In this document: positions 4,908 to 49,330 of the stretch, in pieces | How the letters are laid out: each line of letters opens with the position of its first letter | Position numbering within the stretch: position 1 is the stretch's first letter | Origin: a virus | Direction: 5' to 3' (one strand) | DNA length: 49,330 nucleotides | Virus genome (UHGV): UHGV-0139780 | Translations under genes and position numbers: made by a program | The notes under the pieces: model-generated | What the model saw: the letters and a program-made list of their open reading frames with translations, nothing else | Database searches by the model: none | What the model was told of the DNA's origin: nothing

Positions 4908-6248
4908 ATGACCGAACTTTGCCATACAGGACGCGGGCTGTCCGAAGAGTTTGATGAAGATTTCCAGAACAGATTGACGGCATATTTTTGTCGTGATCAC
5001 GAGTTTCTTACTCGTGCGGGAGATCTGGTTGTGCCTAGCCAATTTGCCAATGCGGCCAATGCCATATTGGTTAATATGGTTTCGGGCTATTACCGTATGT
5101 ACAAGAGCGCGCCCTCTTCATCTGCGATTCTGGATCTGCTTAAGCGTGCGAAACGCGATAAGACTATCCGTGAGGAACTATTCGCGGATGTTGTTGCTGC
5201 GTTTAAGCGCATCCTTGCAGAAAAATTGTCCGATACCTCGTACATGGTTGACCAGGTATCAACCTTCGCAAAAAGCGTAGCGTTTGATGATGCTCTGATT
5301 AAGGCTGCTGAACTTAAAGAGAAAGGCGACTTTCAGGGGGCGATGGCAATCATGGCCAAGGTTCAGCAGATTGGATCGAACGAAGCGGCCGGAATCTATG
5401 ACTACTACACTTCCGCAAGTGAGCGATTGAAAGCGCGTGAATATGAGGCTTCAGAGGAGTATGTGCCAAACAGCATTACAACTGGACTCCCTCTGCTCGA
5501 TAGGTTGCTGTACCAAAAAGGCTGGGCGAAGCGTGAAATGGTGCTCTTCATGGGGTTCGCTAAATCCGGTAAATCGACCGCAATGGGTGAGTTTTCGGTA
5601 AACGCAACGCTTGCTGGCTACAATGTTCTGTATCTCTCGCTGGAGGTTCACACCACCATTTTATCCGACCGTTTTGATGCAAGATTGTCGGAGACGGAAA
5701 TGTCCAGACTGGTGGAACGGCGCGATGAAGTTCATCGTAAGTTGGCAGAGTTGGGAGCCACTAAGGGGATTGGTAGTTTGTGGGTTGTTGAGCGTCCGTC
5801 AGGAAGTATGTCACCGGCAGATCTGGACCGTATGCTTAACAGTATGAAAGCCAATGGCATGGTGCCTGACATGGTTGTTGTCGACTACGCAGATTTGATG
5901 CGTGCCAGTTATGACCTTCGTGATGATCGCGCCAATATTCGTAGTATCTACACAGATTTACGTGCTCTTTATGACAAACATAACGTTGCTGGAATCACGG
6001 CATCGCAGACAAACCGTGAAGGTGGCGCGTCAGAAGTTGCCACAATGATGCACGCTGCCGACAACATCGAAAAAGTACGTATTGCTGACCTGGTAATAAC
6101 GATCAACAAAACCGAAGAAGAAGAAGCGAAAGGAGAGGCTCGTCTCTACTTTGCTGGTTCACGTAACCAGCAAGGAGGGATCAGCATTCGTGTTAAACAA
6201 AACCTCGAACAAATGCGCTTCATTGAGCGGATCTTAGACGTTACCTAA
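4908..6248 (+). CDS. replicative DNA helicase (DnaB/gp4-like RecA-fold)
   Basis: Walker A GFAKSGKST, Walker B-like VVVDYADLM; conserved ACAAAGGAAAGCACATG start context. Confidence 0.75.
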   Translation: MTELCHTGRGLSEEFDEDFQNRLTAYFCRDHEFLTRAGDLVVPSQFANAANAILVNMVSGYYRMYKSAPSSSAILDLLKRAKRDKTIREELFADVVAAFKRILAEKLSDTSYMVDQVSTFAKSVAFDDALIKAAELKEKGDFQGAMAIMAKVQQIGSNEAAGIYDYYTSASERLKAREYEASEEYVPNSITTGLPLLDRLLYQKGWAKREMVLFMGFAKSGKSTAMGEFSVNATLAGYNVLYLSLEVHTTILSDRFDARLSETEMSRLVERRDEVHRKLAELGATKGIGSLWVVERPSGSMSPADLDRMLNSMKANGMVPDMVVVDYADLMRASYDLRDDRANIRSIYTDLRALYDKHNVAGITASQTNREGGASEVATMMHAADNIEKVRIADLVITINKTEEEEAKGEARLYFAGSRNQQGGISIRVKQNLEQMRFIERILDVT

Positions 6249-6329
6249 AAAATAAGCGTGGAGAACACCTCCACGCTTGATTCATTGGTGAAACAACTTT
6301 TCTTTTGCCAAACCACAAAAGAAAAACAC

Positions 6330-7511
6330 ATGAACCTTTATGTTATATCAACATTTAGGTTGGTCACAATATTGCCTGTTAAAAGTGGAATTATCGTGAG
6401 CGAGCTGAAAGAGCTAATTACCGAATTAGATTTTGAACAATGGTTGGACACTGAAGGTATCGTTTATCGACGTGGAGGTGTGAGTACTCGCGGTCGTGAA
6501 GTGAATATCAAGGAGTGTCCGGTATGCGGCAGCTCCAACTGGAAGGTATATTTCAATCTGACCAGCGGCGTCGGTAAATGCTTCGCTGGTGATCATCCCG
6601 AAGAGATTCAGTTCAATAAGCTGGTCTTCCTCAAGCACTACAGCGGTAAATCACGACGACAGTTCGAGGAATATGTGCAGAACGCTCTTCTTTCCCAGGG
6701 GTGGGCACCAAAGAAAGAAGAGATAGTGCTTGCAAGCACAGTCGAGTTAGAGGGACCACTTGCACTCCCTCGTCATTACGAACTTCCTATAGATGGCCGT
6801 CTTCCAGACTATCTGGTTGAACGAAACATATCGCCTGAAATGGCAAAGTATTTTGACCTACGATACTGCGTCGAAGGTAAGCACGCCTATGTAGATCCGT
6901 ATACAGATCAGGTTAAAGGACAGATATTCGATATGCGAATACTGATACCGGTTTACGATCTGGATGGGGTAATGAAGACATTTCAGGGGCGAGACATTAC
7001 CGGTACAGCTGAACGTCGCTACCTCTTTCCTATGCAGCTTCCAGCTTCAGGTAAGTTCCTCTACAACGGCCATAATGCAGTCGGCAAACAAACTGTTGTT
7101 GTCTGTGAGGGGGCGTTCGATGTTATGGGAGTCAAACGAGCTATTTTTGACGAAGAAACATTACGTGATTACGTGGAACCGATAGGAACGTTCGGGATGC
7201 ATCTATCTGGTAACACTACTCAGGATGCAGAAGATCAGTTAGGCGCGTTCCTGACGCTCAAGGCGCGTGGATTACGTAATGTGATCATGATGTGGGATAG
7301 TGAAAAGCAAGCTATACGAAACACTATGGCCGCAGCCAGGCGACTGACCAGTATCGGTCTTAATGTCAAAGTTGCGTGTTTGGGTGAGGAAGGACTCGAC
7401 CCGGGCGGTGCAACGCCAGAACAAATTATCAAAGCCTATTATCGGGCAAAACCGTATACCAAACAGTTGGAGTTGCAAAGCAAGGTTTTGGGCATTAAGG
7501 CTCTCTCATAA
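6330..7511 (+). CDS. DNA primase (zinc-finger plus TOPRIM)
   Basis: CPVCGSS...C zinc finger and VVVCEGAFDVMG TOPRIM motif; start placed at the ATG preceded by AAAAGAAAAACACATG; track start 6258 overlaps a hairpin. Confidence 0.7.
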   Translation: MNLYVISTFRLVTILPVKSGIIVSELKELITELDFEQWLDTEGIVYRRGGVSTRGREVNIKECPVCGSSNWKVYFNLTSGVGKCFAGDHPEEIQFNKLVFLKHYSGKSRRQFEEYVQNALLSQGWAPKKEEIVLASTVELEGPLALPRHYELPIDGRLPDYLVERNISPEMAKYFDLRYCVEGKHAYVDPYTDQVKGQIFDMRILIPVYDLDGVMKTFQGRDITGTAERRYLFPMQLPASGKFLYNGHNAVGKQTVVVCEGAFDVMGVKRAIFDEETLRDYVEPIGTFGMHLSGNTTQDAEDQLGAFLTLKARGLRNVIMMWDSEKQAIRNTMAAARRLTSIGLNVKVACLGEEGLDPGGATPEQIIKAYYRAKPYTKQLELQSKVLGIKALS

Positions 7512-7587
7512 AATCGCACCTTTAAAATAAGTAGATAGTCACTTATCTTTCTGTAAGAATAGTTTCATCTGTTAGCTAGGAGTTGGT

Positions 7588-8370
7588 ATGAAAGACGAAA
7601 TTCAGAAATTAGCTTGCGACATCATTGATAAAACTGGTTTAGAAATCAGCGAGAGTAACCGGCTAGACATTATTGAAAAAGCCGTCAATACAGCAATGGA
7701 TCATATTGCCACTCGTTTAGTCGATATCCCGCTACCAGGACTACCTTATCTGAAAGTTGAGTTACGCGTATGGGGCGAATCTTCTGATGCACGGCGTTCT
7801 GCATTGGTTGTTTTTATTAGCAAAGAAAACATACAAGCTCTAAAAGTGCAGGTTGGGGCATGGTTTGATGGTAGGGTTATCTACACTGATACTCTCATTT
7901 GTCCTTCAGGTGATGAGCATATTGAAGCCACTATTCGAGAATCAATTCGGGCTATGCGCAACTTGTCTTTGCTGAAAGACAAGCCTAACTATGAAAATTA
8001 CTTGCTATCAACAAAATCTGAACCAGCATTGTCGCTGAAAGCCGATTTTGTGACCCCGGCTAACTTGCTAGAAGTTTTGATCAATAAAGGGGCGAAGAAT
8101 GCCGTAAATGTAATCAGAGAGAGTGAATATGCATCTCTTTGCGACATGTGCAAAAGCCAGTTGGATCTGGTGCATATCGTTATTGATGCTGGGAAGGCAT
8201 GTGATGGCGTAATGGCGGAATTTGCTGGGAAGATGGTCAGGATTGCTAACGAATTACCGATGATAGAGCAAGAGGCTAAATCATACGCCACCAATCATGT
8301 CACAGAGCTTCTTGTCCCCTATCGCTTAGAAAGCAATCAGCGCAAGATGATTAGCTGGGGAAGTTGGTAA
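7588..8370 (+). CDS. hypothetical protein
   Basis: 260-aa ORF with good coding continuity; no motif recognised. Confidence 0.4.
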   Translation: MKDEIQKLACDIIDKTGLEISESNRLDIIEKAVNTAMDHIATRLVDIPLPGLPYLKVELRVWGESSDARRSALVVFISKENIQALKVQVGAWFDGRVIYTDTLICPSGDEHIEATIRESIRAMRNLSLLKDKPNYENYLLSTKSEPALSLKADFVTPANLLEVLINKGAKNAVNVIRESEYASLCDMCKSQLDLVHIVIDAGKACDGVMAEFAGKMVRIANELPMIEQEAKSYATNHVTELLVPYRLESNQRKMISWGSW

Positions 8371-8427
8371 TCTCTCCGAGCGTCGTTTCTTTTACGCAAA
8401 CAATGATAGGTAAGTACAAGGTTATTT

Positions 8428-8910
8428 ATGGCGATAGTTGTGAAAGCTGATTTGTCAAAAATCCCCTCTATTTCAGGAAATAATGGTTATTCACTTCGTT
8501 GTGAGGAAGTAAAGATAAACGGTGAGTCGGCATATTGCAGTTACTCCGTTTGCCAGCATACCATTCTTGCCTTCAAAGAAAACCGTCTTCCTCGAACTTC
8601 ATTCCAGTCGTGCGCAACCGCTATCAAAGCAGGCAAATGCAAGGCGTTAAAAATGATGGTTGGAGAGATTCGTAAAGGAGAATCTCTGTATTTCGAAGAT
8701 ATGACCGCGCTCATTAAGGAGGTTGAAGAACGGAATAAACAAGCCAGAACTATAAAACGAAAACGTGACAGTGTAACGATTAATAGCATGGTTAAGAAGA
8801 GCACCACATCACAAACAGCGATCACTGACGTGTATGCGGCGTTGCTTGAAGAAACAACAAAAGAAACACATGAGCAAATCGATCAACATATGGAGGCAAA
8901 ACAACAATGA
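8428..8910 (+). CDS. hypothetical protein (Cys-containing, basic C-terminus)
   Basis: 160-aa ORF; no motif recognised. Confidence 0.4.
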   Translation: MAIVVKADLSKIPSISGNNGYSLRCEEVKINGESAYCSYSVCQHTILAFKENRLPRTSFQSCATAIKAGKCKALKMMVGEIRKGESLYFEDMTALIKEVEERNKQARTIKRKRDSVTINSMVKKSTTSQTAITDVYAALLEETTKETHEQIDQHMEAKQQ

Positions 8911-47598: not shown

Positions 47599-47853
47599 AT
47601 GAACCACTTTAAGGAAACCAACATGTCATACCCGACTAATGTCGTTGCACTCGTAGAGAGCGATTTTCTGGCTCAGGCTCGTGAAATGATGAAAGATCGC
47701 GAGCAGGCTTTCACCTTGTATGAATGGGCAATTAAGTGCTTGCATCTTGGGGAGCATCGCGAACTTGTTGAACAGCTTTTAGGTGAGTTGATCAATGAGG
47801 TGTTTGCCTTGAATGTTCAACTACATGGTCGAGAAAGCAACCAATCACAATGA
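47599..47853 (+). CDS. hypothetical small protein
   Basis: 84-aa ORF with AAGGAAACCAACATG start context. Confidence 0.3.
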   Translation: MNHFKETNMSYPTNVVALVESDFLAQAREMMKDREQAFTLYEWAIKCLHLGEHRELVEQLLGELINEVFALNVQLHGRESNQSQ

Positions 47854-48382
47854 TAGATAAGTACTAACTATTTATAAAGTGAATGATAAGTGCTAAGATC
47901 TGATAGTTTCCAGTCGTAGACTGGAGGCTCGACCTGATGGGTGGGGGTAAGCGTCACTGGCGTCAGGTTTAAAAAAGCTCACTACCAGCGTAGAACCGGC
48001 ACCGTTTAGGGGTTGGGGAAGGGGGAACCAAAGTGGGCAGAGAGAAGGGTCACTTTATGATTGTCGAGTCTGGGGTGTTTCGAGAGGTTGAATCCAGTAC
48101 TCCCCTTCATAAAGTGTGGGAAGATCTCGGTTCTGGGGTGCTGTCATCCATAACTTCCCAAGCCTAAGCTGGCAGTAGACTTAGGTCATAACTTTTCAGG
48201 TTATGAAACGACCAGGTTGGTGAGGAATTTTTATACTCACCTCCCTGGGAGAGTATTACCTGAAAAGACAACCTCTCACTTCGTTCGAGGTGAACTTCAC
48301 TCACTTCGTTCGTTCAGTTCAGGTTTTATTAAAATCTGTTCTGGGAAGTAAGTTTTTTTTTTTCTAAAAAATTTTTAATATT

Positions 48383-48408
48383 TACACGCACGCGTGTGCG
48401 CACGCGCG
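48383..48408. repeat. 26-nt perfect alternating purine-pyrimidine tract flanked by T/A runs
   Basis: tacacgcacgcgtgtgcgcacgcgcg; preceded by a T13 run and followed by an A8 run. Confidence 0.6.
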
Positions 48409-48448
48409 AGGAAAAAAAATCGGCGCGGCGCTTGATTCAGGAGTTTAT

Positions 48449-48640
48449 ATGACGTCGAAGACACCAGCCCGATCGCAAGCAAAAACTCGCAAAAAAAACA
48501 AAAACAAAAATTCTCCCCACACCAATCCCACAACACCTGTCGTAGGATTCAATCCCCAGCTTAAAACCGTGAAAATCTTCAGTGATGGCTCTTGCCTTAA
48601 AAATCCGGGTGGCCCGGGCGGTTACCCCGGTGCGCCGTAA
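48449..48640 (+). pseudogene. rnhA-like (RNase HI) N-terminal fragment, interrupted by an IS element
   Basis: VKIFSDGSCLKNPGGPGGY matches the recalled RNase HI N-terminus (IFTDGSCLGNPGPGGYG); frame ends right after TTAC at 48622-48625. Confidence 0.5.
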
Positions 48641-48683
48641 AGCCCCGTCCTTCAGGTCGGGGATATAAGGCGCGGTTTTCCAC

Positions 48684-49100
48684 CTAACCAGGTGTTTGCT
48701 GTTGTTCAATGTATTGGCGGATGATGGATATTGGTGCACCACCGCAGCTACTGGCAAAATAGCTGGGACTCCATAAAACGCCTTTGTGGTAATATCGGGC
48801 TGCAATATCTGGTCGATCTCGTCGCAATAATCTACTCGATACGCCCTTGAGACTGTTCACCAGGCTGGATATCGCCAATTTTGGGGGATAGTTAATTAGC
48901 AGGTGAACGTGATCTCGTTCTCCATCCATTTCAACCAGTTCAGCTTCAAAATCAGCACATACACTTGAAAAGTAAGTGCGTAGTTTTTCTATTGCGTCAT
49001 GGTCAAAAATCTGACGTCGGTATTTCGCGACAAAGACAAGGTGAACGTGCATCAGGAAGACGCAGTGCCTTCCACGTCGGATATCAGTTTCTTTTTTCAT
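48684..49100 (-). CDS. tnpA: IS200/IS605 Y1 (HUH) transposase TnpA
   Basis: HVHLVF...KYRR and DHVHLL HUH blocks, C-terminal LWSPSYF...GGAP; start at internal ATG 49100 (MKKETD...). Confidence 0.75.
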   Translation of the reverse strand: MKKETDIRRGRHCVFLMHVHLVFVAKYRRQIFDHDAIEKLRTYFSSVCADFEAELVEMDGERDHVHLLINYPPKLAISSLVNSLKGVSSRLLRRDRPDIAARYYHKGVLWSPSYFASSCGGAPISIIRQYIEQQQTPG

Positions 49101-49122
49101 AGACCAAAGTATAATTTGGCTT

Positions 49123-49330
49123 ATGAAACGACTACAAGCCTTCAAATTCCAGTTAAGACCAAATGGACAGCAGGAGCGTAAAATGAGGCGCTTCGCGGGC
49201 GCATGTCGTTTTGTTTTCAATCGTGCTCTGGCGCTTCAGAATGAGAATCATGAGGCCGGGAACAAATATATTTCTTATGCAAAGATGACTTCCTGGCTGG
49301 TTGAGTGGAAAAATGCCACTGAAACCCAAT
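49123..49330 (+). CDS. tnpB: IS605-family TnpB (OrfB), N-terminal part only
   Basis: MKRLQAFKFQLRPNGQQERKMRRFAGACRFVFNRAL is a typical OrfB N-terminus; no stop before the window end. Confidence 0.6.
   Translation, partial: MKRLQAFKFQLRPNGQQERKMRRFAGACRFVFNRALALQNENHEAGNKYISYAKMTSWLVEWKNATETQ

Follow-up and report, generated by a model that had tools for sequence, protein, structure and literature searches.

What has become of the RNase HI gene near the 3' end of UHGV virus genome UHGV-0139780, and what is the DNA that cuts it short? The stretch analysed, referred to here as the window, is a whole metagenome contig of 49,330 bp (ena:ERZ1749178:NODE_140_length_49330_cov_3.58) whose source, judged from its sequence relationships, is an SSU5/pHCM2-like phage-plasmid of the Enterobacteriaceae (E. 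coli). An initial annotation had attributed the break in its rnhA gene to an insertion sequence (IS) of the IS200/IS605 group lying at a TTAC target. The answer reached here, which is very probably correct, is that an IS609-like element of about 1,749 bp with divergent tnpA and tnpB genes has been inserted as single-stranded DNA just 3' of TTAC at rnhA codon 59, an IS608-like mechanism and TnpB homing being inferred for it.

The position of the left junction emerges from comparison with relatives that lack the IS. In megablast searches with the rnhA/IS region, similarity to Escherichia phage Cyrano (95.5% identity), PhiR41_1 and CMS-2020a (both about 94%) and Salmonella phage SSU5 (86%) ends in every case at query base 826, which is window position 48625. 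Similarity to IS copies in E. coli plasmids and chromosomes starts at 48626/48627, or from 48621/48622 for those copies that also lie beside TTAC. The boundary therefore falls between 48625 and 48626, directly after TTAC, as initially proposed. The proposal that the interrupted open reading frame (ORF) is rnhA-like holds as well, since its part up to 48625 is 95.5% identical to Cyrano CYRAN_82, and over its first 59 residues the protein shares 90% identity with the start of the 197-aa Cyrano RNase HI. The TAC of TTAC is Tyr59 of that 197-codon gene. Beyond it the frame runs through four IS-encoded codons, and not two as first reported, before reaching a stop. The catalytic carboxylates of E. 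coli RNase HI are D10, E48, D70 and D134. The 63-aa product gives no Pfam match, falls short of a complete RNase H fold and keeps just the first of these four carboxylates, the Asp of FSDGS; rnhA is inactivated by the insertion and is a pseudogene here.

The same left junction is found on two further contigs, L004 (Logan SRR1761716) and L005 (ERZ28620746; the L numbers are working handles for records), each matching the window at 100% identity; the 63-aa product recurs in the gene calls of all three contigs, which do not differ across the region. L005 ends within tnpB at the same base as the window, 49330, and L004 ends 84 bp past the stop of the truncated ORF. As an IS is a repeat in a metagenome, the contig most likely stops inside tnpB because other IS609-like copies in the sample broke the assembly graph, and not at a biological end. 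When the left-junction string CCGGGCGGTTACCCCGGTGCGCC was searched in viral, metagenome and genome contig collections there were 0 matches in each, and the annotated phage, plasmid and E. coli collections hold no record spanning the junction (best coverage 69%). The insertion is likewise absent from the 12 phage records, 687 plasmid records and 67 IMG/VR contigs that carry this locus. Because it is missing from all sequenced relatives with the locus, the insertion looks recent on this comparative evidence.

The 705 bp of IS in the window are 98% identical to E. coli plasmid copies such as that in NZ_CP095127 (L006), a 94-kb plasmid with phage tail genes, and about 90.5% identical to the chromosomal copies annotated as IS609 in RefSeq. 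The limits of the complete element were set by comparing L006 with copies in other contexts, namely L002 (Morganella phage IME1369_01) and L009 (E. coli chromosome, RefSeq IS609 family). It begins directly after TTAC with CCCGGTGCGCC (CCCGG...) and finishes with GGAGGATGTCAA (GATGTCAA), giving 1,749 bp. There are no terminal inverted repeats; instead, subterminal hairpins lie at both ends, the right one being seen on contig L008 (introduced below) and on relatives, outside the window. An imperfect palindrome of greater length (48632-48673) encloses the left hairpin. The right hairpin, TCCACG-TCCTTCAGGG-CGTGGA on L008, L006, L002 and L009, has the same loop as the left one, with GAAT, the right guide (GR), on its 5' side and TCAA, the right cleavage site (CR), terminating the element.

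On sequence evidence, then, both ends carry the pairing characteristic of this class, the left guide (GL) with the site of cleavage on the left (CL) as well as GR with CR, and the guide changes in step with the target. Among seven copies, AAAG goes with TTAC in three (the window, L010 and L011) and AAAA with TTAT in four (L002, L009, L012 and L013). In these alignments natural retargeting within one IS lineage is visible as guide-target covariation, as expected from the retargeting experiments on IS608, and the locus offers a clean natural case in which the IS608 left-guide/target code (AAAG-TTAC; AAAA-TTAT) is readable straight from genomes. Two smaller differences accompany this pattern. The window/L006 type has one extra C at its left tip relative to the IS609-annotated copies. 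In the closest complete copies (98%; L006 3505-3560 compared with window 48626-48680) GTAAAG is replaced by TTATAT and the AAAG guide is lost; such copies may be immobile or may use another recognition geometry.

The genes of the element agree with its ends. The TnpA of the window matches ISHp608 TnpA (PDB 2a6m) with E 4.5e-21, its DHVHLL aligning with DHIHIL and its QYIEQQ, which holds the tyrosine, with QYIENQ, so that both the HuH motif and the catalytic Tyr of a Y1 HuH transposase are in place. Compared by eye with WP_197347836, its counterpart in L006, it has one difference, Y to H in ARYYHKG. The tnpB fragment is identical at 67 of 69 residues to the 402-aa TnpB of L006, a protein with helix-turn-helix (HTH), OrfB_IS605 (RuvC) and zinc-ribbon/Cas12f1-like TNB domains that matches ISDra2 TnpB (8ex9/8exa/8h1j) over nearly its full length (E 6.5e-56). 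An intact TnpB of 402 aa is present in the complete relatives (98% identity), whereas the window shows the HTH_OrfB_IS605 part only. The IS200/IS605 class, the hairpins and the gene orientation given in the initial annotation are all borne out, with tnpA on the minus strand and the tnpB N-terminus on the plus strand (Table 1).

What, then, lies on the far side of the element? To query for the right junction, the Cyrano sequence after TTAC was appended to the L006 right end (GAGGATGTCAA/GGTATAGTTCT, where the slash marks the junction), the rnhA sequence expected there starting GGTATAGTTCTCC. In the metagenome collection this string had a single match, which lies at the end of OLHG01002559.1 (L008). 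On the minus strand of L008 come, one after another, the final 38 nt of tnpB, the right hairpin, the terminus ...GGATGTCAA, and GGTATAGTTCTCCAGTATCG with the rest of rnhA. The IS end GGAGGATGTCAA (TCAA) abuts GGTATAGTTCTCCAGTATCG, just as the Cyrano sequence continues after TTAC, and no base is gained or lost. The 81 nt of IS right end on L008 are 100% identical to L006, and downstream of rnhA its genes follow the Cyrano order. Window 48449-48625 and L008 from 9398 downward together give an uninterrupted 197-aa RNase HI that is identical to that of Cyrano at 187 of 197 residues; the rnhA frame thus does resume beyond the IS right end, on L008 and outside the window, which was the outcome on which the initial annotation had staked its claim. 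As the joined halves restore an intact 197-aa rnhA, the event is a simple insertion without target duplication or deletion. The empty site in Cyrano is GGTTAC/GGTATAG and the occupied site reads GGTTAC/CCCGG in the window and GTCAA/GGTATAG in L008, the right half of this comparison coming from the other contig. For the flank in the window and for that in L008, the best sequenced plasmid is in each case about 95% identical, and on this sequence evidence the halves are consistent with an origin in one unsequenced lineage. Short fragments of RNase HI homologues (P0092, P0100, P0102 and others) were also considered as C-termini left behind the IS and were rejected, being N-terminal or contig-edge pieces; the contig of P0100 (L007) has an uninterrupted rnhA locus.

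How such an element would move can be drawn from its better-studied relatives. For IS608, TTAC has been identified as both CL and target, with support from retargeting experiments (PMC3201880), and AAAG as GL (PMC5934647). By analogy, the element would have transposed as single-stranded DNA (top strand) into the + strand of the SSU5-like phage-plasmid, 3' of TTAC. TnpA, as a Y1 HuH enzyme, would recognise the hairpins, the sites being found by pairing of AAAG with TTAC and of GAAT with TCAA, as in the IS608, ISDra2 and Geobacillus systems. The + strand shows positive GC skew over the entire contig, and a TTAC-bearing strand acting as lagging-strand template is compatible with it, as weak evidence.

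The second gene adds the prospect of homing, a mechanism already described for TnpB (PMC8612924; bioRxiv 10.1101/2023.03.14.532601; bioRxiv 10.1101/2023.11.20.567912). By the same analogy, the right end and the 3' part of tnpB would yield an omega RNA (reRNA) that takes its guide from the flanking rnhA, namely its first ~16-20 nt (GGTATAGTTCTCCAGTATCG), and the TTAC of the insertion site is the presumed transposon-adjacent motif (TAM) for the TnpB of the element. The expected outcome is cleavage by TnpB of rnhA alleles that lack the IS (TTAC followed by GGTATAGTTCTCCAGTATCG), which would favour retention or homing of the element. Among 48 IS-free alleles at fetched loci, TTAC is present at rnhA codon 59 in 40, and the putative 20-nt guide matches perfectly in 10 and with one mismatch in 16. 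The insertion thereby defines a concrete predicted TnpB target, TTAC+GGTATAGTTCTCCAGTATCG, which many IS-free SSU5-like plasmids contain.

Several points weigh against this account. The contig terminates within tnpB, leaving the window without the IS right end, most of tnpB and the 3' part of rnhA, and its coverage is just 3.6x. The window and L008 are linked by inference, as they come from different assemblies with zero overlapping sequence, and the three left-junction contigs and L008 may share one sequencing run and thus represent one observation of the event. Rfam searches at the IS right end of relatives returned HgcC (E 0.017 and 0.083) and RAGATH-18 (E 0.049), all below the gathering thresholds. 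L006 is an exception to the guide rule, with ATAT in the guide region within a perfect 16-bp palindrome, and not all copies of the subtype need be mobile. Finally, the expression and activity of TnpA, TnpB and the omega RNA are predictions.

Could the junction be an assembly chimera, in which a de Bruijn graph linked phage-plasmid reads to those of an unrelated IS copy by a short k-mer common to both, without any insertion? The low coverage and the contig end inside the IS would fit, two assemblies do stop at an identical base, as graph-driven breaks would, and all the contigs possibly derive from the same reads. However, the break falls precisely where an insertion requires it, 3' of TTAC and at element base 1 as set by unrelated copies, and three different assembly pipelines (ENA NODE, Logan, ENA scaffold) arrive at the identical junction. 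There is also the reciprocal right junction, where rnhA continues without a gap, and the phage sequence and IS ends share no k-mer besides TTAC. A chimera is accordingly regarded as extremely improbable. A related possibility is that the IS is truly at TTAC but that the DNA beyond it has been deleted or rearranged, the L008 junction belonging to another phage-plasmid or to a second, independent insertion. The locus is plastic, as two relatives (L079 and L068) with almost all of rnhA replaced by other DNA illustrate, and the two contigs share no sequence, which makes their linkage a putative one. This reading is nonetheless very unlikely given that (i) the left-junction string occurs on no other viral, metagenome or genome contig and the right-junction string has its single match, (ii) 0 of 687 plasmids and 0 of 67 IMG/VR contigs are interrupted at 48625, (iii) the IS portion of L008 is identical to the closest relative of the window IS, and (iv) each flank has a best sequenced plasmid at about 95% identity, and the gene order after rnhA in L008 is that of Cyrano.

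A different kind of alternative accepts the insertion and denies its activity: the element would be a vertically inherited dead passenger, immobile, its TnpB and omega RNA inactive, with no homing or retention. The part of tnpB past codon 69 is unseen, TnpA has its one Y-to-H substitution relative to the nearest homologue, and the nearest complete copies have an altered left guide. On the other hand, tnpA is full length with HuH and Tyr motifs that align to those of IS608 TnpA, the left hairpin and its AAAG guide are intact, the 81-nt right end on L008 is intact and terminates in TCAA, and the absence of the insertion from every sequenced relative indicates a recent event. A dead passenger is thus unlikely, and the preferred reading remains that of a recent insertion by an IS608-like mechanism.

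Table 1. Features at the interrupted rnhA locus (window coordinates).
Feature	Coordinates	Strand	Evidence or remark
rnhA 5' part	48449..48625	+	codons 1-59: ~40-aa basic extension and start of RNase H domain, including first catalytic Asp (FSDGS)
Truncated fusion ORF	48449..48640	+	63 aa: 59 rnhA codons (MTSKTPARSQAKTRKKNKNKNSPHTNPTTPVVGFNPQLKTVKIFSDGSCLKNPGGPGGY), 4 IS-encoded codons (PGAP), then TAA
TTAC, insertion target and left cleavage site (CL)	48622..48625	+	homology breakpoint with the IS-free Cyrano allele
IS609-like IS200/IS605 element, left 705 bp	48626..49330	+	complete relatives 1,749 bp; cut at contig end
Left guide tetranucleotide (GL) AAAG	48639..48642	+	directly 5' of hairpin foot, read from sequence
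Left subterminal hairpin (IPL core)	48643..48662	+	CCCCG-TCCTTCAGGT-CGGGG; DNA fold
tnpA, intact 138-aa Y1 HuH transposase	48684..49100	-	Pfam Y1_Tnp (PF01797) E 4.6e-42, full-length profile
tnpA/tnpB spacer, divergent starts	49101..49122	.	22 bp; same arrangement in L006, L009, L010, L012, L013
tnpB, first 69 codons	49123..49330 (69 codons to 49329)	+	Pfam HTH_OrfB_IS605 E 1.5e-17; contig terminates in gene

How new is this element? RefSeq-annotated IS609 copies (e.g. NZ_CP116088 389296-390943) share with the window type the divergent tnpA/tnpB, the 22-bp spacer, a length of about 1,749 bp, the loops of the hairpins and GGATGTCAA as the right terminus. They differ in having the guide AAAA with the target TTAT where the window has AAAG with TTAC, and in their nucleotide sequence (about 90.5% identity to the window); over the whole element (1,748 bp) the window-type copy L006 is 94.9% identical to L009/L002. 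The conventional threshold for calling two copies the same IS is about 95% nucleotide identity to the reference. From comparison with the RefSeq-labelled copies, the element is best called an IS609-like isoform or a close relative of IS609. The closest copies (98%) are E. coli plasmid elements without an IS name, and by sequence the window is a further member, and a further insertion site, of a well-known family. The insertion is real yet ordinary: elements of the IS200/IS605 family occur throughout the enterobacteria and move by a mechanism that is well understood, and a related copy of this IS is present in 5,009 of 5,426 complete E. coli genomes.

With respect to mechanism the closest parallel is IS608/ISHp608 of Helicobacter pylori, which has the identical set of tetranucleotides (CL TTAC, GL AAAG, CR TCAA, GR GAAT), likewise inserts 3' of TTAC without duplication, and has a homologous TnpA. 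The hairpin spacing on the left is 17 nt in the element and 19 nt in IS608, and that on the right is 9-10 nt. The nucleotide sequences are, however, unrelated, the host of the element is enterobacterial, and in IS608 tnpA and tnpB are co-directional whereas here they diverge. In ISDra2 and the Geobacillus IS605-family systems the right end and its flank are the source of the guide RNA, as would be expected here too for an element known from its sequence alone; set against those TnpB systems, the window holds only 69 tnpB codons and no omega RNA. The TAM of ISDra2 is TTGAT, as against the TTAC predicted for the present element.

The interrupted protein is the RNase HI of SSU5-like phage-plasmids (Cyrano CYRAN_82, SSU5_090), here cut to 59 native residues. 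The initial annotation had singled out its basic N-terminal tail as unusual. The tail is real, in that an extension of about 40 residues (MTTKTP...basic...KTPVVEFNPQLK) precedes a Pfam RNase_H domain that starts at residue 40, as in the intact 197-aa homologue P0001 (PF00075 E 8e-44, residues 40-178). It is not, however, special to the window but a family-wide trait, found in all SSU5-like RNase HI proteins of E. coli, Klebsiella, Cronobacter and Salmonella (alignment A3), whereas chromosomal RNase HI proteins (155-158 aa) are without it. An internal GTG was entertained as the true rnhA start (compare the 157-aa P0078), which would leave the tail untranslated, and was rejected: nearly all of 53 relatives retain both ATG 48449 and its strong AGGAG Shine-Dalgarno sequence.

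Loss of this gene seems to be tolerated. In the IMG/VR relatives L079 (~900-2465) and L068 (~5716-8629) rnhA is nearly wholly replaced, with its last ~25-30 codons left; the replacing DNA is unrelated, and in L079 it holds a 182-aa ORF on the opposite strand. Since the gene is IS-interrupted here and nearly all replaced in some relatives, the phage-plasmid rnhA is evidently dispensable and its locus plastic, with host RNase HI presumably substituting for the lost function. Just 5' of the rnhA Shine-Dalgarno sequence, at 48386-48434 (+), are palindromes that are GC-rich and alternate purine with pyrimidine (CACGCACGCGTGTGCGCACGCGCG ... CGGCGCGGCGC). Between them is an A-run, 5 to 10 long depending on the relative, and the whole may be a regulatory or slippage-prone element.

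Upstream of rnhA the gene order is that of Cyrano (ribonucleotide reductase, thymidylate synthase, dihydrofolate reductase, exonuclease, Dam methylase, small ORF, rnhA), and between the small ORF, which ends at 47853, and the rnhA start lies a near-invariant stretch of about 430 nt (+ strand, ~47900-48358, core 47923-48340). Across 687 SSU5/pHCM2-like plasmids and 12 phages its identity is mostly 95-99% and seldom drops under 90%, against 80-88% for the flanking coding DNA, and its conservation extends across the phage-plasmids of six genera (E. coli, Salmonella, Klebsiella, Enterobacter, Citrobacter and Cronobacter). The plasmid records listed carry no annotation for it, and it is kept in L079 and L068, where rnhA is replaced. 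Rfam searches of this stretch and of the rnhA/IS region, at E up to 1, gave only a chance hepatitis C virus match in the GC palindromes; tRNA/tmRNA, promoter and terminator scans gave nothing informative, and a literature search for a known RNA on pHCM2/SSU5 nothing usable.

Does this stretch specify an RNA? RNAalifold applied to 53 distinct versions (alignment A2) predicts 132 pairs, with 99.8% of cells paired. Compensatory double changes occur at 5 pairs, as against 0 in structures slid by 1-3 columns, and the covariation score is 0.053, as against no more than 0.023 for the slid structures. Most predicted pairs are invariant, and the covariation support is confined to a few helices; further compensatory changes are seen by eye in the 5' hairpin 47909-47928 and in a helix at ~47998-48021. 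The G-U intermediates indicate an RNA from the + strand. The stretch is, from this modelling, a candidate for a new large structured RNA or an R-loop/primer RNA, and as such is more interesting than the IS insertion and merits its own investigation. A more elaborate scheme would make the tailed RNase HI the partner of this RNA, in R-loop or primer processing at a replication origin after the manner of ColE1 RNA II, with the insertion a natural knockout of the module and TnpB with its omega RNA a gene drive against IS-free siblings; this is decidedly improbable.

Some smaller features of the conserved stretch can be added. A 44-aa ORF with a GTG start occupies 48033-48167 (+), and Cyrano has the hypothetical protein CYRAN_81 at the matching position; because the DNA is nearly invariant there, substitution patterns do not separate a coding from an RNA function. 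There are G-runs (GGGTGGGGG, GGGGTTGGGGAAGGGGG), and two hairpins share the loop UCACUUCGUUCG. The hairpin 47909-47928, at the 5' edge, is rebuilt by lineage, with the arms TCCAG/CTGGA, TCCGG/CCGG, TTCGA/TCGAA or GCTGGCAGAT/ATCTGCCAGC, and no U-tract follows it. Just 5' of this hairpin is a conserved TAnnAT hexamer (47888-47893; TAAGAT, TAAAAT or TAGAAT), which could be the -10 element of a promoter for the RNA.

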